Source: Candidatus Cloacimonadales bacterium (GTDB lineage: Bacteria; Cloacimonadota; Cloacimonadia; Cloacimonadales; JAFGVF01). Taken from it: a stretch of 64,000 nt of DNA. The notes under the pieces are model-generated. The model did not search any database. It had not been told where the DNA came from and saw only the letters and a list, made by a program, of their open reading frames with translations. The stretch covers positions 608,001 through 672,000 of the forward strand of contig CAXXJV010000001.1 of assembly GCA_963663475.2 (NCBI GenBank). Reading direction: 5' to 3'. The position numbers and the translations under genes are program-made. Position 1 is the first letter of the stretch; the number at the start of each line of letters is the position of its first letter. Below are positions 53,071-61,642 of this stretch, one piece after another.

Positions 53071-53224
53071 GGCTTTTAACCAACGATTTTTAAGAAATAT
53101 TTTAGCAGTTTACCCCCTAAAATTAGTAGATAAAATAACTTTTTAGATTAATGGATAATAAATTGCATTAACTATATGTTAGAGAGTGATTATAAAAAAT
53201 GATATAAAGAAATGAGGAGAAAAA

Positions 53225-56200
53225 ATGAAAAAATTTATTTTGTTGTTTTCCTTGCTTATGACCATTAGTATGGTGATGGCAGTTCAGGAAAACTTAATGG
53301 ATTTACACCAAAACTCTATTACTTTACAGAATAGTAATGATTATGGTGTAGATATCGCTTATGAACTTGGAAACATAGAGATTAAGACTAATAATACTCG
53401 TGGTGGAGAATATGCAGAGATTTTTGCAAAGGACTATTCTTTAACTAAAGATGAGGGTTTACCTCAATTACCATACAGTCAGAAAATCATCTCAGTTCCA
53501 CTTGGTGCAAGTGTTGAAGCTTCTATTGAAGTTAATTCAGCAAGTAGTTTAAACCTAGTCAGAAGAGGTTTTAATCAAGCAATTATTCCTGCTCAACCAT
53601 CTGTGGCTAAGTGTGAAAATATCGAAGATATGCCTTTTATCAAAAATGAACAAATATATAATGCAGATAAAGCTTTTAAATACCAACCAGTAAGTGTTAA
53701 AGAAATTGGTATTTTGAGAGGAATGAGACTTTTTGAAGTTAACTTCTATCCAGTTGAATACAATCCAGTATCTGGAGACCTCCGTGTTATCAACTCTGCA
53801 GATGTTACTATTGAATTTGTCAATGGCGATATCTATGCTACTGAAGAATTAAAAGCTAAAACAAGATCCTTTATGTTTGAAGGTATTTATTCTCAAAACA
53901 TCTTCAACTATTACCCTTCAAGATCTTCTTTAGAAAACTACCCACTTGGCTACTTAATAATTACACCAAACCAATTTATGGATACTTTAGAACCATTCAT
54001 TACCTGGAAACAAGAACAAGGTTATGATGTAACTATTGGTATTACTGATAATATCGGTTCTTCTACAAGTGCAATTAAAAACTATATCCAAGGTATCTGG
54101 GACGCAGCTACTCCTAACAACCCTGCTCCTTCTTACTTATTAATAGTTGGTGATACTCCTCAAGTTCCAGCTTACGCTGGTTCAACAGATTCTGGTCATG
54201 TAACAGACCTTAATTATGTTAGATTAAACGGTACAGACTATCTTCCTGAAATGTATTTTGGAAGATTCTCAGCAACAACAGTTGCCCAGTTAACCCCTCA
54301 AGTTAATAAAACTTTAACCTATCAAAAATATGAAATGTCCGACCCTTCTTACCTTGAAAGAGCAACTCTTATTGCCGGTGTAGATGGTTACTGGGCTAAT
54401 ACTCATGGTAATGGTACCATTAACTATGGTAGCGATAACTATTTCAACGAAGAACATGATATAGATGTTACTACTTATTACTATCCTCAATCAGGTTCTT
54501 CTGCTGCAAGTATCGTAGCAGATGCAAGTGCTGGTTTAGGTTATTTAAATTATACTGCTCATGGTTCTGAAACTTCATGGTCAGACCCTAGTTTTACCAT
54601 TTCAAATATTAATAGTCTCCAAAACTCAGGTAAATATCCTGTTGTTGTAGGAAACTGCTGTTTAACAAATCACTTCAATACAGGTACATGTTTCGGTGAA
54701 GCTTGGTTAAGAGCTACTAACGGTGCAGTTATCTATATTGGTGGAACAAACTCAACCTACTGGGATGAAGACTACTGGTGGTCTGTTGGTCACTTCACTC
54801 CTACTTCAACATCTAACCCAACTTATGCTGGATCTGGACTAGGTATGTACGATGCCCTCTTCCATGAACATAATGAAGCTTTTGAAGACTGGGCTCATAC
54901 TGCAGGTTCTATGGTATTCACAGGTAATATGGCTGTCCAATCCTCAGCTTCAACTAGAAAAAATTATTACTGGGAAATCTACTCAATTATGGGTGACCCT
55001 TCTTTAATGCCTTATATTGGTGTTCCTCAAGCTCAAACTGTTGATTACTCTAACACTATGCTTGTTGGCATGACTTCTCTTAATATCACAGCAGCTCCTT
55101 ATAGCTATGCTGCTCTTTCTAAAGAAGGCCAGCTTCTTGGAACAGTCTTAACAGACGGTACAGGAAATGGTACAATCAACTTTGAAGCACTTAACCTTCC
55201 TGGTAATGTTAAATTAGTTGTGTCTCACACTGACTACCAACCATTTATCACAGATATTGAAGTTGTACCAGCAGAAGGTCCTTTCCTTGTTATTGATAAC
55301 CAACAAATTACTGGAAACATTGCAGCAGGTCAAAACCTCGACATGGCTCTTACTATTGGAAATGTTGGTGTTGAAGCTGTAGCAAATGTTGATGTTACTC
55401 TTACAAGTCTTGATGCTAATGCTACTATTACTAATGCCAATACTACTATAGCTAATATCGATGCAAATAGCACTAGTCAATTAGCTTCTGCTTTTGAAAT
55501 AACACTTGCTAATGGTATCAACCAAGGCGACAATATTGCCTTTAATTTACTCCTTGAATCAGCTGACGAAAGCTGGGAATATGAAATAATGCTAACTGCT
55601 GTTGGACCACATTTTATTATCACTGAAGTTGAAGTAAACGATGGTGATAACAACTTACTTGATCCTAACGAGACTGCTCAACTTTTAATCAGCTTCCAAA
55701 ATAATGGTAATTTTGTAGCTAATACTAGTGTAGCAAGTTTAATCTCAGCAACACCTGGCATAACTATTGCTGATCCAAACATTGCATTAGGAGATATTGC
55801 TGCTAATGCTAACGGTCAATTCACTGTTACTGTTGAAACATCTGCTTATATGGAAACTGGAACTATTGCAAACTTCACTACTAATTTCACTAGTGAATAT
55901 AACGTTATCTCTTCAGATAACTTTGAGCTATCTGTTGGTTTACTCTTTGAAGACTTTGAATCTGGTGACTTTGCATCAGACTTCAACTGGAATACTCCTG
56001 GTTGGTCTGTTGTAAGTAACGAAGCTCATGAAGGTTCTCACTCTGCTAAATCAAATACTATTAACCACAGCCAATCAGCTTCTATGACTGTTCAAATGGA
56101 TGATGTAACTGCAGGTCAAATAAGCTTCTGGGTAAAAGTATCTTCAGAAAGTGGCTATGATGAATTAACTTTCTATATTGATAATGCTGCCCAAGATTCT

Positions 56201-56992
56201 TGGAGTGGTACTGTTAACTGGCAAGAAGTATCTTACAATGTTACTGATGGTAACCATACCTTTAAGTGGGAATATAGCAAAGACTATAGTGTAAGTGAAG
56301 GTGATGATTGTGCTTGGATTGACTATATTGTCTTCCCTACCGCTACAAGTGAAGTTGGCGATCCTGTGATAGCTCTTGATATGACAGAATATGACTTTGG
56401 TGCTGTTGCAAGTGGTCAAACTCAATTCACCATCTCCAACTCTGGCCAAGGTATCTTAGCTGGTCAAATTTCACTTAATAGTCAAAGCGTATTCTCAATA
56501 AGCTTAGAAGACCAAGAAGCTAACAACCAGCTTAATTACTCTCTTGATCCTGAAGCAGAATTGCAAGTAACTCTTCACTTCAATCCTATTGCTAATGTTG
56601 AATACTCTGATAATGTCATTATTACTTCAAATGATCCACAACAGGAACAAGTTGTAATTAATGTTTACGGAACAGGTCAAGGTGTATCTAATGATGACGA
56701 AAACCTTATTCCACAAATAACAGAACTTCAAGGAAACTACCCTAATCCATTTAACCCTCAAACTGCTATTAAATATGCAGTTAAGCAAGATGGAAACGTT
56801 TCCCTTAAAATATTTAATTTAAAAGGCCAGCTTGTTAAAACTCTTGTTAATGATGATGTTAAAGCTGGATTCCATAGTATTGTCTGGGATGGCAAAAATA
56901 ATTTTGGAACAGATGTTGCAACAGGTATATACTTGTATCGTCTAGAAACCAAAACATATAACCAAACCAAAAAGATGATGCTGATGAAATAA
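53225..56992 (+). CDS. Gingipain-like C25 cysteine peptidase with propeptide, Ig modules and T9SS-like C-terminal domain
   Basis: GLPQLP propeptide, WKQEQG, LIVGD, GRFS, NYTAHG, GNCC catalytic region, GDP; C-terminal NYPNPFNP...WDG...KKMMLMK. Confidence 0.93.
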   Translation: MKKFILLFSLLMTISMVMAVQENLMDLHQNSITLQNSNDYGVDIAYELGNIEIKTNNTRGGEYAEIFAKDYSLTKDEGLPQLPYSQKIISVPLGASVEASIEVNSASSLNLVRRGFNQAIIPAQPSVAKCENIEDMPFIKNEQIYNADKAFKYQPVSVKEIGILRGMRLFEVNFYPVEYNPVSGDLRVINSADVTIEFVNGDIYATEELKAKTRSFMFEGIYSQNIFNYYPSRSSLENYPLGYLIITPNQFMDTLEPFITWKQEQGYDVTIGITDNIGSSTSAIKNYIQGIWDAATPNNPAPSYLLIVGDTPQVPAYAGSTDSGHVTDLNYVRLNGTDYLPEMYFGRFSATTVAQLTPQVNKTLTYQKYEMSDPSYLERATLIAGVDGYWANTHGNGTINYGSDNYFNEEHDIDVTTYYYPQSGSSAASIVADASAGLGYLNYTAHGSETSWSDPSFTISNINSLQNSGKYPVVVGNCCLTNHFNTGTCFGEAWLRATNGAVIYIGGTNSTYWDEDYWWSVGHFTPTSTSNPTYAGSGLGMYDALFHEHNEAFEDWAHTAGSMVFTGNMAVQSSASTRKNYYWEIYSIMGDPSLMPYIGVPQAQTVDYSNTMLVGMTSLNITAAPYSYAALSKEGQLLGTVLTDGTGNGTINFEALNLPGNVKLVVSHTDYQPFITDIEVVPAEGPFLVIDNQQITGNIAAGQNLDMALTIGNVGVEAVANVDVTLTSLDANATITNANTTIANIDANSTSQLASAFEITLANGINQGDNIAFNLLLESADESWEYEIMLTAVGPHFIITEVEVNDGDNNLLDPNETAQLLISFQNNGNFVANTSVASLISATPGITIADPNIALGDIAANANGQFTVTVETSAYMETGTIANFTTNFTSEYNVISSDNFELSVGLLFEDFESGDFASDFNWNTPGWSVVSNEAHEGSHSAKSNTINHSQSASMTVQMDDVTAGQISFWVKVSSESGYDELTFYIDNAAQDSWSGTVNWQEVSYNVTDGNHTFKWEYSKDYSVSEGDDCAWIDYIVFPTATSEVGDPVIALDMTEYDFGAVASGQTQFTISNSGQGILAGQISLNSQSVFSISLEDQEANNQLNYSLDPEAELQVTLHFNPIANVEYSDNVIITSNDPQQEQVVINVYGTGQGVSNDDENLIPQITELQGNYPNPFNPQTAIKYAVKQDGNVSLKIFNLKGQLVKTLVNDDVKAGFHSIVWDGKNNFGTDVATGIYLYRLETKTYNQTKKMMLMK
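56904..56920 (+). promoter_or_regulatory. Sigma-54 (-24/-12) promoter inside the gingipain coding sequence
   Basis: ttGGaacagatgttGCa: GG 56906-56907, exactly 10 nt, GC 56918-56919; the same elements are kept in the duplicate at 57891. Confidence 0.6.
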
Positions 56993-57048
56993 CCTCCTTG
57001 TATGCTAGCAGATAAAGGTTGGGCTCCCCGCCCAACCTTTCTGCATTT
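56931..57048 (+). ncRNA. Candidate 3'-end-derived sRNA, copy 1
   Basis: Lies between a sigma-54 motif and a strong hairpin; 113 of 114 nt identical to 57921-58034; contains anti-SD aacctcctt. Confidence 0.5.
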
Positions 57049-57049
57049 T
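57008..57049 (+). terminator. Intrinsic terminator of the gingipain gene and sRNA copy 1
   Basis: gcag(at)aaaggttgggc-tcccc-gcccaacctttctgc followed by atttt. Confidence 0.75.
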
Positions 57050-57102
57050 AAGAACTTTCTTTTTTATCCCTTGCAGGTATTTTATGTAACTTCATTAATT
57101 TT

Positions 57103-57333
57103 GGCTCAAGTTCAAGCCTGGTGGGAATATATAGGAAAATGAGAATATTTCATTACTATATTGATTCATCAAAAATCCCTGAAAGGGATAAAATAATTTA
57201 GCCCAAGGTAAGATGCTGAAAGTATCGCAAGCCTGGGTAATGATGGTTGTCCCAAAGATATTACCCTGTAAGGGTTTAATAAAATGATAAATAATGTAAG
57301 TCTCTTATTTACCACCAGACTTGAACAAGAGCC
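57103..57333. mobile_element. MITE family B, 231-bp copy with 8-bp target-site duplication
   Basis: Ends ggctcaagttcaagcctggtgg ... ccaccagacttgaacaagagcc; ttaatttt at 57095-57102 and 57334-57341. Confidence 0.9.
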
Positions 57334-57890
57334 TTAATTTTTGATCCATATCTTAGTGTAATTAGTGTAATCCGTGGATAGACTATTTCTTTTTACACAG
57401 TCTGGCCCGCCTTCCCAGTTAGAGCCGTCAGGCGGGGAGAGTAAACATTCCCCTTTCAGCTCCTTGTCAGTGAAACCAGTTAAAGCTGAAAGCGAAAACT
57501 CTCTTCTTGCATCTTAATACTTATTTTCCTGCAACAATCATTATTTTATAAATATTTATATATGTGCAAAATTTACCATACAGTCACGTTGTAAAAGTTG
57601 ATAAATAGCTACTTTTTCATAAAGACTGTCTTATGTCTAATATCATGACTTGAACTTTTCTGTTAAACAGGAGCTTTTCATCCCTTAACTCTTGTATATA
57701 CTGTTTACACATTCTTAATTATTGTCCGTAACAGTGTAGACATTTCTTTAAAAAAGGTAAAAAGTGTAAATTTTCTTACTAGTTATGCTTATTTGTGAGC
57801 TTTCTTTTTTCTAAGGCTAACTTACTAATAGTCTGATATTTATTAAGTATTTTAAAATTATTTTTAACTTTTTTTTGAAATTTAATTTGT

Positions 57891-57907
57891 TTGGAACACC
57901 TATTGCA
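57891..57907 (+). promoter_or_regulatory. Sigma-54 (-24/-12) promoter of the stand-alone sRNA copy
   Basis: ttGGaacacctattGCa: GG 57893-57894, 10 nt, GC 57905-57906. TGT...ACA boxes at 57693-57709 and 57723-57742 could be activator sites. Confidence 0.7.
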
Positions 57908-57917
57908 TTATTATATA

Positions 57918-58034
57918 AGCGTATCGTCTAGAAACCAAAACATATAACCAAACCAAAAAGATGATGCTGATGAAATAACCTCCTTGTATGCTAGCAGACA
58001 AAGGTTGGGCTCCCCGCCCAACCTTTCTGCATTT
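57918..58034 (+). ncRNA. Candidate sigma-54-dependent sRNA, stand-alone copy 2
   Basis: Predicted +1 (about 57918) lies 3 nt before the duplicated block begins; ends in the terminator hairpin; no RBS-preceded ORF. Confidence 0.6.
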
Positions 58035-58044
58035 ATAGACTATT

Positions 58045-58740
58045 TTATTTTTCCCAATACTTATCTTGAGGGTATTTTTCTTTTAATTCTTTTGCCAACT
58101 TCTTATATTCTTTCTTCATCTTATTAGCCTGCAAAATCTCTAACTTAAGGAAATTCTCCTCATGGGAAGAAAACTCTTCCTCTGGATCTTCAATATCTTT
58201 TCCCTTGTAAAACATAGCTGTTTCAAAGGTTTTTAAAGCTTCTTTATTTTTCTTTAGCTTCAACTGAGCTCTTGCTAACCACATGTAAGCATCATAATGT
58301 TCTTCTCTTGTTTCAATTGCTTTAGTAAAAGCTTCTTCCGCCTTAACCCAATTTCCTAACTTATAATATACTTCACCCTTATGTCTCCAAGGACAAGACC
58401 AGTTAGCAAATTTATCATTCAAGTAATTATAATGAGGTAGAGATTCCTCAAGTCTTCCTATTGTTAAATAGATATTAGCTAACTGAAACCTTTGGGCAGC
58501 TTGTAAATCGTCTGCAATTTCCTCAAGTTTAGCCAGTGTTTTATTCATCTCTGAATAATGAACCATGAGTAAGTTATAGTTGCTACTAGCCAGGTCTTTA
58601 GAGCTATTTGCATCTTCTAAAACAGCCTTTAGATTTTCAAAACTAGCATCTTCAAAGTAAGACGTTAAGAGATCTTGACTAGCCCCGAAGACAAGTCTAG
58701 TAGCCATCAAAACGATTAAAAGACAAAATACTTTTTTCAT
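58045..58740 (-). CDS. Exported TPR-repeat protein
   Basis: Signal peptide-like N-terminus; TPR patterns (LANIYLTIGRLEES, KGEVYYKLGNW..AEEAF). Confidence 0.8.
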   Translation of the reverse strand: MKKVFCLLIVLMATRLVFGASQDLLTSYFEDASFENLKAVLEDANSSKDLASSNYNLLMVHYSEMNKTLAKLEEIADDLQAAQRFQLANIYLTIGRLEESLPHYNYLNDKFANWSCPWRHKGEVYYKLGNWVKAEEAFTKAIETREEHYDAYMWLARAQLKLKKNKEALKTFETAMFYKGKDIEDPEEEFSSHEENFLKLEILQANKMKKEYKKLAKELKEKYPQDKYWEK

Positions 58741-60984: not shown

Positions 60985-61220
60985 TGTGGACAAAATTCCA
61001 TAAGCTAAATGTGGAAAAGATTTGTTAATTTTTAGCTAAATTATTATTAAAACAATCAAATAGGTTAGATCAAGTCTATGTGTATAAGTAGTGGATAAGT
61101 ACTTGCATAAATCAACATATTGTTCCTTATTTATATGTCTATTAATATGATAGACATATTGTGGATAATGTGTATATTAAGGATAAGTAGTAGTTAATCC
61201 TGGATGAAAATTGGGTATAA
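60985..61220. other. DnaA-box cluster, candidate replication origin
   Basis: Co-oriented TGTGGATAA-type 9-mers at 60985, 61010, 61079, 61090, 61160 (perfect), 61169 and 61212 in a very AT-rich intergenic region. Confidence 0.65.
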
Positions 61221-61307
61221 GTCATAAGGTACATAGAAAAGAGAAAGTGGTGGTAACTCACTGTTTCTGAGGCTAATTATTTCTTTTCTTTCTTTCCAAC
61301 CCATCTT

Positions 61308-61642
61308 TACGCAGATGACAAGTAGTTACGGGATTGTCTCGAGGGATTCCAGCCCGCGGTTACGCTGAAGACAAGCGGTTACGGTGCCTATGGAGTGGAA
61401 GCATCCTTGCTTGCACACACATTATTCTGAGACAAGAGATGGTCTCAGTCCATAGTTTTTATAACTCGTGATTACGCAGAAGACAAGCGGTTACGGATTG
61501 GGTCGCGGGATTCCAGCCCGCGGTTACGCAGATAATAAAGTGGTAACGGTGCCTAAGGAGTGGAAGCATCCTTGCTTGCACACACATTATTCTGAGACCA
61601 GGGATGGTCTCAGTCCATAGTTTTTTTCTAGCCCGCGGTTGC
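61308..61642. repeat. Duplicated mosaic of REP-like hairpins (about 160-bp unit, two copies)
   Basis: gggattccagcccgcggttacg...ggagtggaagcatccttgcttgcacacacattattctgagac...ggtctcagtccatagttttt occurs twice, in opposite orientation to the 62266 array. Confidence 0.9.

Follow-up and report, generated by a model that had tools for sequence, protein, structure and literature searches.

The stretch of DNA analysed here (the window) comprises 64,000 nt of a Candidatus Cloacimonadales bacterium (assembly GCA_963663475.2, contig CAXXJV010000001.1, forward-strand positions 608,001 to 672,000; coordinates below are those of the window), and our subject is a 114-base block that occurs in it twice, once at the 3' end of a peptidase gene and once free-standing further downstream. 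The genome (G000) has a size of 3.30 Mb in two contigs, a G+C content of 33% and a completeness of 99%. The peptidase gene (53225..56992, plus strand) encodes a 1255-aa protein of the C25 (gingipain-type) family with a C-terminal sorting domain of the type IX secretion system (T9SS), according to its open reading frame (ORF) and Pfam matches (Peptidase_C25, 3e-64; Propeptide_C25; Peptidase_C25_C; Por_Secre_tail). Copy c1 (56935..57048, plus strand) consists of the final 19 codons, stop codon, 3' untranslated region (UTR) and terminator of this gene. Copy c2 (57921..58034, plus strand) lies in ORF-free DNA, 11 nt off the stop of a TPR-repeat gene (58045..58740, minus strand; ORF, Pfam TPR_1 and related families), which is syntenic across the genus and the original downstream neighbour. 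Since this gene is convergent, c2 is not the leader of any gene.

The repeat and its predicted fold

A repeat search of the window yielded one two-copy direct-repeat family of 140 nt (56926-57065 and 57912-58051) with an offset of 986 bp. Its 114-base core contains a single mismatch (57011 T, 57997 C), located in the 2-nt bulge of the terminator hairpin. This arrangement had been reported in a preliminary description of the locus, made from the letters alone, and is confirmed by both the repeat search and blastn. Genome-wide blastn over the 3.30 Mb found c1 and c2 as the sole copies. The reading frame of c1 is shut in c2 by a TAA one codon ahead of the core, and no start codon follows until MMLMK. 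The small ORFs across c2 amount to frames of 33 and 36 aa, both TTG-started on the minus strand, and one of 47 aa that leaves the conserved block; all three were rejected as coding genes.

Both copies share one predicted fold. A 5' stem-loop (56935-56981 in c1, 57921-57967 in c2), in which GUAUCGUCU pairs with AGAUGAUGC over 9 bp around a 29-nt C/A-rich loop that is invariant among the copies, is followed by a 26-nt linker predicted to be unpaired (UGAUGAAAUAACCUCCUUGUAUGCUA; 56982-57007 and 57968-57993) and by a G+C-rich terminator hairpin of 15 pairs with a 2-nt bulge (57008-57044 and 57994-58030). The linker carries the motif ACCUCCUU (56992-56999 and 57978-57985). Minimum free energies are -33.6 and -33.3 kcal/mol (z -5.1 and -5.3), and none of 200 shuffles folded as well. 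A terminator scan also calls the hairpin at c1, with 11 pairs, six of them G-C. Among the aligned copies, three pairs of the terminator helix are changed on both sides and 99.1% of cells are paired, which was reached by 0-1 of 500 shuffles. Rfam 15 gave no match at gathering score between 55500 and 59500; the best, cyano_het_sRNA, reached 26 bits where its gathering score is 35.7, and it covers only the hairpin, on the opposite strand. A search for tRNA and tmRNA genes found none in the window.

Conservation of the block and its probable origin from a gene tail

A DNA search covered 40 relatives; the comparisons below concern the genus of G000 (g1; seven genomes), a sister genus of the same family (g3; G008) and, as outgroups, genus g2 (G007, G009) and another family (G014). 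Both copies are present at the same locus in all seven g1 genomes (145-150 bits) and on a metagenome contig (L047), whereas G008 has c1 alone. Core identity is 97-100% among the 14 g1 copies and 93% in the single G008 copy; core positions 1-78 are invariant in the 15 aligned copies of these eight genomes and in both copies of L047, hence in 17. A scan of 185,579 species genomes returned 10 block stretches in 7 records, all at the C25 locus, and the public records with the block are metagenome-assembled genomes (MAGs) labelled Candidatus Cloacimonadales or Cloacimonadota. A metagenome scan added three stretches, namely the contig of G005 again, the new two-copy contig L047 and a chance match (L048). 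Seven further assemblies or contigs, including several chromosomes in a single contig, show the same two-copy arrangement, which excludes an assembly artefact.

Further copies at the ends of other sorting-domain genes, which the preliminary description had in view, were not found by blastn in the own genome or by the covariance model R1 in relatives. Matches of 30-40 bits to R1 in g2 and a few other places were rejected as RNA copies; they are the 3' ends of other sorting-domain genes (...KKMxLMK* codons plus terminator).

The constancy of the block exceeds what the protein requires. Identity of the C25 protein to that of G000 is 63% in G008, 44-45% in G007 and G009 and 43% in G014, and nucleotide identity to G000 is 98-100% in the tail versus 64-79% upstream. 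Upstream of the tail, the amino acid is invariant at 68 of the 165 aligned codons, and the codon itself at only 17 of those 68; in the last 19 codons the latter figure is 18 of 18. The two copies of a genome differ in the bulge base, and in G002 and G005 a compensatory change from T-A to C-G is found in c1 only. Because of these differences, we conclude that both copies are held constant separately and not by recent conversion. Copy c1 thus shows one of the marks of a 3' UTR-derived small RNA (sRNA), being co-terminal with its parent gene at the terminator and selected beyond coding needs, with frozen synonymous sites and an invariant 3' UTR part. The pair likewise shows what marks sibling sRNAs, with two homologous copies per g1 genome, each conserved and evolving separately. 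That the block is a selected functional element we regard as very likely.

The same data bear on the possibility that c2 is the neutral leftover of a partial tandem duplication, kept alike by gene conversion, with c1 conserved for coding only. It is true that c2 holds ex-coding sequence and that the DNA just upstream of the copies is weakly alike in G000 (local alignment score 35; median of the shuffles 23, with 5 of 200 scoring at least as high); beyond the promoter such similarity is matched by few shuffles in two of six genomes (5 and 3 of 200) and by many in the other four. Yet synonymous sites are frozen in 18 of 18 codons against 17 of 68 upstream, as is the 3' UTR part, the bulge and the compensatory pair give no sign of recent conversion, and G008 keeps c1 frozen without any c2. 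As judged from these alignments, the neutral scenario is already contradicted by the conservation data, and we give it hardly any credence.

The block might also be a 3' module, that is a terminator combined with an element for mRNA stability or translation end, that has no role in trans, with c2 serving as terminator or insulator between convergent genes. In its favour, c1 physically supplies the C25 gene with its 3' UTR and terminator, c2 borders on the 3' end of the TPR gene that faces it, and target searches returned no target. However, a terminator needs its hairpin only, and here it is the hairpin that varies, in a compensatory manner, while the preceding 78 nt are frozen in 17 copies. 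Moreover, the 270-870 nt ahead of c2 are unalignable and free of ORFs, which leaves no mRNA to stabilise, and conservation upstream of c2 begins exactly at the promoter-like motif described below. We therefore consider a purely cis-acting module improbable, and a small RNA remains the probable identity of the block.

Between the copies lies a variable spacer (57049..57701, unstranded), which in G000 is occupied in part by a dispersed repeat some 200 bp long (57103-57298), with families of shorter repeats reaching to about 57465. The long repeat has a sharp 5' boundary at GGCTCAAGTTCAAG (57103) and some 60-85 genome copies of 90-96% identity on both contigs; repeat depth across 57109-57289 is 59-86 genome copies. 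It looks like a miniature inverted-repeat transposable element. Elsewhere in the genome, an inverted partial copy and a tail segment of 43-50 nt often come after it, and its minus strand has a weak Rfam match (Acido-Lenti-1, 21.5 bits versus 37). In six genomes the spacers measure 387-875 nt and have in common only the last 32-98 nt and a few short islands. Invasion by such dispersed repeats accounts for the difference in spacer length between species.

Direct repeats that include a gene 3' end and flank DNA differing among species are also what would be left by an element integrated in the end of the C25 gene, in which case the copies would be attachment sites of the attL/attR type and their constancy would reflect spread of the element; the mobile-looking dispersed repeats in the G000 spacer fit this picture. 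The ORF list of the window, though, holds no integrase and no ORF of at least 50 aa within the spacer, and the attachment-site explanation therefore fails. In addition, the spacer ends (promoter and box, see below) are conserved and syntenic in eight loci, G008 has c1 with the same frozen sequence and no second copy, and the block occurs nowhere but at this locus (10 stretches in 7 records among the species genomes scanned). This origin is in our view very unlikely. Target-site duplication and assembly artefact had been named as alternatives in the preliminary description; both fail, as the two copies with their GG-N10-GC motifs recur in 7/7 g1 genomes and L047.

With regard to direction, the outgroup orthologues are informative. 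Those of G007, G009 and G014 close with a sorting-domain tail of the same kind (YFYRMETDNYVKTKKMLLMK; ...KKM(L/M)LMK), written in different codons. They show no TGGAAC-N5-TTGCA motif, no CCUCC after the stop and no hairpin, and their terminators are unrelated. Copy c2 is ex-coding sequence, given that the c1 frame is closed by the TAA one codon before the core, and the RNA accordingly came from the gene and not the reverse. The proposed birth of an sRNA from a gene 3' end is thus backed in its direction by orthologues that have the protein tail and lack the RNA features; derivation of the free copy from the C25 gene end is well supported by these comparisons. In the ancestor of the two sister genera, the C25 tail would have come under nucleotide-level selection, and in one genus the tail together with about 30 nt of upstream coding sequence would then have been duplicated to a place about 0.3-1 kb downstream, although with the present genomes a loss of c2 in g3 fits as well as its gain in g1.

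Part of the raw material may be older still. In some unrelated T9SS cargo genes the ..YRL.. and ..KKM(I/M).. codons are already complementary (UAUCGUCU with AGAUGAU), with 8 of 9 pairs in the best match and 7 of 9 in G005:C30 (e.g., G009:C1:121641-121750 and G005:C30:1987-2081). Because of this complementarity, the 5' stem of the sRNA may have pre-existed in sorting-domain coding sequence.

Promoter motifs, candidate enhancer and expression

Sigma-54 promoters have GG at -24 and GC at -12, one helical turn apart, and an enhancer-binding protein (EBP) site upstream. Motifs of this layout precede both copies on the plus strand at the positions first proposed, namely TTGGAACAGATGTTGCA within the FGTDVA codons of the C25 gene (56904..56920) and TTGGAACACCTATTGCA ahead of c2 (57891..57907). 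Both read TGGAAC-N5-TTGCA and depart once (C to A) from the consensus of the TGGCAC-N5-TTGCW type. The genome encodes sigma-54 (rpoN; PF04552, 171.7 bits, 487-aa frame) and 10 strong enhancer-binding proteins (PF00158, Sigma54_activat, each of at least 196 bits); the presence of rpoN is what the earlier proposal required. Transcription would start near 56931 and 57918, 3-4 nt ahead of the 5' stem, by the rule of 19 bp past the motif centre as applied in the E. coli study (PMC4591121).

That the -24/-12 letters are kept and the letters between them diverge was first noticed between the two copies, and it holds across relatives. For c1, TTTGGAAC-N5-TTGCAAC is found in all eight complete upstream sequences, the ninth being cut by a contig end, and variation is limited to the letters between the two elements. 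For c2, GG-N10-GC is present in 8/8 loci, TGGAAC in 7/8 (TGGAAT in G003) and TTGCA in 7/8 (ATGCA in L047), with variation limited to the 2-3 letters following TGGAAC. Cross-species conservation upstream of c2 begins at TTTGTTTGG.

The same type of signal stands out genome-wide. Among 30 unique intergenic TGG-N8-TTGC[AT] sites, 13 are followed in sense by an ORF start at a distance of 40-100 nt, versus one the other way. Controls with wrong spacing (N6, N7, N9, N10) gave 3, 3, 2 and 2 sites before ORF starts, and those with GG->CC, GC->CG or GC->CC gave 0-1; the A/T-rich control GG->AA (59 intergenic sites) gave 14 in sense versus 5 the other way. Two members of the class sit right after EBP genes. 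The existence of an A/T-shifted sigma-54-type promoter class in this genome is clear from these counts.

One member of this class, found by the own-genome motif scan, is the promoter of the C25 gene itself (ATGGATAATAAATTGCA / TGGATAATAAATTGCA; 53151..53167, plus strand), 73 nt ahead of the ATG. Its GG, TTGCAT and spacing are invariant in 7/7 g1 genomes, and the DNA upstream of it is unalignable. The C25 mRNA would itself begin at this sigma-54-type promoter. Many class members precede ORFs of more than 1000 aa (e.g., G000:C1:347585, 1064183, 1649129 and 2353437), which suggests sigma-54 control of large, possibly secreted, proteins. Another member in the window (TGGAATATAACTTGCA, 36841) lies 65 nt before a 784-aa ORF.

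Upstream of c2, the paired TGT..ACA boxes (57702-57709 and 57735-57742) and the A/T tract of the preliminary description are present, and one box and the tract are conserved in otherwise unalignable DNA. The candidate EBP site (57702..57742, plus strand) comprises TGTTTACA at 57702-57709 and GTAAC-AG-TGTAGACA at 57728-57742. A box of the form TAA[CT]-N2-3-TGTNNACA is found in 8/8 two-copy loci, 171-186 nt ahead of the core in seven and 425 nt ahead in G002, and is the sole island besides the promoter that is common to all spacers; across the genome, TGTNNACA has 0.11 occurrences per kb. Between box and promoter, the tract at 57743..57890 (plus strand) is A/T-rich: the 95 nt before TGG have 77-85% A+T in 8/8 loci (82% in G000), compared to an intergenic background of 67% (sd 9%, n=3342 windows), of which 0.6% of windows reach 85%. 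We posit that an enhancer-binding protein at the TGTNNACA box would switch c2 on, the A/T tract helping the DNA to loop, and that sigma-54 RNA polymerase would read c2 from TGGAAC-N5-TTGCA. Box and promoter occur in combination at 20 sites genome-wide versus about 10 expected, mostly in coding DNA, and a signal of a wide regulon is therefore lacking.

A second orphan locus (G000:C1:857733-858300), which lies outside the window, has a related architecture. Here a TGTTTACACCTGTAAC box, of the TGTTTACA type, lies 159 nt ahead of TGGAACTAACAATGCA, and both TGGAACTAACAATGCA and the box (GTTTACAC..GTA; TGTTTACAC..GTA) are invariant in 7/7 g1 genomes. What follows is a conserved structured RNA candidate of about 250-380 nt (z -3.55) that carries CGCUACCUCCUCA / ACCUCCUC and ends in a long helix plus T7; Rfam returned no match at gathering score for this locus. 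We regard it as a candidate second sRNA, and it supports an EBP/sigma-54 module that drives non-coding RNAs in g1.

Another orphan site in the window (TGGATAAGTACTTGCA, 61092-61107) is accompanied by a TGTGGACA box at -107, and no ORF of at least 90 aa lies within 2.3 kb; it is conserved in one of six congeners only and was set aside as an sRNA promoter. Shortly behind it, at 61295-61600, start arrays of short repeats, both of the GGAGTGGAAGCATCCTTGCTTGCAC type and in tandem units of about 53 nt, with more than 100 further occurrences across the genome.

The sRNA could also be functional and yet independent of sigma-54, with c2 made from a housekeeping promoter TTGGAA-N17-TATAAG and c1 solely by cleavage of the C25 mRNA. 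Indeed, c2 can be read as TTGGAA-N17-TATAAG and c1 as TTGGAA-N18-TATACT (9/12 matches in a consensus scan), a TATATA block lies 3 nt before the core in both copies, and c1, which has no TGTNNACA box upstream, has its C25 3' end transcribed within a 2985-nt RNA contig. Housekeeping promoters in this genome, however, lean on exact TTGACA (301 of 986 upstream regions in sense versus 63 antisense, and the rRNA promoter too), which is found in none of the c2 copies. G005, with GTGGAAC, retains TGG but not the TT of TTGGAA, and in L047 the -10 hexamer becomes TTTAAT; TTGCA, which would fall inside the sigma-70 spacer, is kept in 7/8 loci. A scan for promoter-like sites gave 14 versus 11.5 in shuffles. 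The Bacteroidetes-type -7 box TAnnTTTG was tried as a housekeeping signal as well and rejected, since it is not enriched (105 sense versus 90 antisense). We hold sigma-54-independent expression of the RNA to be unlikely, if worth keeping in mind, and think it reasonably probable, on the promoter motif and its conservation, that c2 is driven by sigma-54.

Expression data come from assembled RNA contigs of four runs (X1, X2, X8, X13) out of 19 listed, 12 of which are recorded as RNA. Two of them (X1 and X2, one study, labelled marine-sediment metatranscriptome) contain the same organism or a near strain and cover the C25 gene and c1, with a gene depth of 13.3 and 9.1, respectively. The 2985-nt contig includes the C25 3' end and has one difference over 428 nt. 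The 3' end of the C25 gene is thus expressed. X8 had no contig at the locus, and X13 had one, confined to the spacer repeat. At the tail, short contigs from these two runs reach higher depth (38 for 56898-57018, 47 for 56898-56991), which mixed strains sharing the conserved tail may explain. As these are assemblies, the contig end at 56898 and the adapter junction at 56991 are not readable as RNA ends. A discrete small RNA from c1 or c2 is accordingly a prediction, which we think will probably hold.

Several observations weigh against a sigma-54-driven sRNA with two genes. The block copies are not independent samples, because all come from MAGs of one small clade. The 5' stem has no covariation support, for it never varies, and the U-tract after the hairpin is short (CUGCAUUU, then U/A). 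Of the canonical TGGCAC-N5-TTGC[AT] the genome has just two instances, each within coding DNA, so that the sigma-54 assignment rests on the A/T-shifted variant, and the sigma-70-type reading of both promoters counts on the same side. In the four runs no RNA contig is assignable to c2 or its specific flanks, and the short high-depth contigs start at 56898, upstream of the -24 box of c1 and not at the predicted 56931. This last point is ambiguous rather than contrary: relatives differ at 56897 (A or G) and all strains are identical after it, so that a mixture of strains can account for the edge as well as for the additional depth. Finally, there is no TGTNNACA box within 300 nt upstream of c1.

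For c1, the biogenesis would be from the intragenic -24/-12 motif, by processing of the C25 mRNA, or both. Owing to the missing box, we leave firing of its own candidate promoter at near even odds, leaning slightly towards doubt on the motif evidence. The c1 motif may be silent, may be served by the enhancer of c2 330-800 nt downstream, or may have another role. All in all, we favour, with due reserve, the reading in which c1 and c2 each encode the same small regulatory RNA, about 115-120 nt long.

Possible mode of action and relation to known small RNAs

The motif ACCUCCUU in the unpaired linker has the same eight letters as the anti-Shine-Dalgarno tail of the 16S rRNA of this organism (GGAUCACCUCCUUUUAA). 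Shine-Dalgarno sites are in use here, as AGGAG precedes 605 of 2433 crude ORFs versus 18 in a control window. An exposed anti-Shine-Dalgarno copy is the usual design of sRNAs that occlude ribosome-binding sites. We posit that the RNA may pair with the ribosome-binding sites of target mRNAs via this motif and the loop, which is the weakest step of the proposed mechanism. It would act without Hfq, as neither Hfq nor CsrA family matches were found in the 99%-complete genome, and would extend the regulon controlling secreted T9SS proteins.

Target searches add a further point against. Duplex energies over 2433 start regions were no better than those of 10 shuffles (-25.7 for the linker versus -19.9 to -25.2 in shuffles, -21.3 for the loop versus -14.5 to -19.6). 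Exact complements of at least 11 nt are mostly antisense strands of other sorting-domain gene ends, and the 19 AGGAGGTTA sites showed no pattern. As the searches did not surpass shuffles, the mode of action can only be inferred.

Each component of the locus has a known counterpart. Type I 3' UTR sRNAs with a promoter in the parent coding sequence include MicL and DapZ, and UhpU of Escherichia is described with dual biogenesis and a FliA promoter that arose inside uhpT in one lineage (PMC12704781). Like these, c1 uses the terminator of its parent, has the motif of an alternative sigma factor in the last codons and may have dual biogenesis and a lineage-specific promoter. In contrast to them, c1 has a free paralogue next door, its sigma factor would be the enhancer-needing sigma-54, Hfq was not found, and the RNA is predicted from sequence.

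Sigma-54- and EBP-dependent sRNAs are represented by Qrr1-4 (LuxO) and GlmY (GlrR) (cf. PMC4211561, PMC7073468), the activation of GlmY by GlrR also being noted in PMC4591121. They share with c2 the layout of a free-standing gene with a -24/-12 promoter and an upstream activator site (a candidate one at c2) and the presence of several copies, and the second orphan locus with its related box resembles a multi-sRNA regulon. However, there is no sequence or Rfam relation, the phylum is another, the -24 element is A/T-shifted (TGGAAC/TGGATA) and one of our copies is gene-embedded. GlnZ, described as a glnA 3' UTR sRNA under NtrC control (bioRxiv 10.1101/2022.04.01.486790), follows in its level an NtrC-controlled (sigma-54-type) parent, as c1 would follow the C25 promoter, but it arises solely by processing and lacks a free paralogue.

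Intragenic sigma-54 sites are documented in E. coli, where GG and TGC are reported to be kept and low-information positions to vary, a pattern from which selection on such sites was argued (Bonocora et al. 2015, PMC4591121). The sites mapped there by chromatin immunoprecipitation include bound TGGAAC and AATGCA variants, and three intragenic sites were seen to drive transcripts that continue into the neighbouring gene and were interpreted as mRNAs with a long 5' UTR (PMC4591121). The c1 motif likewise lies in coding sequence and has the same pattern of kept and variable letters across eight sequences; it differs in being located just ahead of a terminator-bounded RNA.

In the open-access literature searched, we found no description of an embedded 3' sRNA with a free-standing paralogue, and for sRNAs in Cloacimonadota only an unrelated paper. 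The novelty is thus the pair of embedded and free siblings, of sigma-54 type and in an unstudied phylum, whereas the kinds of component are already known. Taken at the level of sequence, the preliminary reading of a duplicated sigma-54-type sRNA is supported.

As a tentative scenario, to which we incline somewhat less than to its opposite, three sister lineages may keep three successive stages of sRNA birth. These would be an ordinary 3' end (g2 and the distant family), a frozen embedded sRNA with an intragenic sigma-54 motif (g3), and the embedded sRNA plus a free duplicate with enhancer, bend and -24/-12 promoter (g1). The free copy would, together with the second orphan locus, belong to a small EBP/sigma-54 regulon of RNAs bearing the anti-Shine-Dalgarno motif, coupled to sigma-54 control of secreted T9SS proteases and operating without Hfq or CsrA.

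mRNA 3' ends have been proposed in reviews as a reservoir of sRNA genes, the origins being mostly inferred afterwards. UhpU documents, as presented in PMC12704781, the step from a processed 3' fragment to an RNA with its own promoter. The locus described here would add the next step, in which the embedded RNA is copied into an independent gene, with both still side by side and with outgroups that lack one or both. If true, it would be the first sRNA candidate for Cloacimonadota as far as the open-access literature searched here shows, in a lineage that, judging from its promoter motifs, appears to use an A/T-shifted sigma-54-type promoter for secreted T9SS peptidases.

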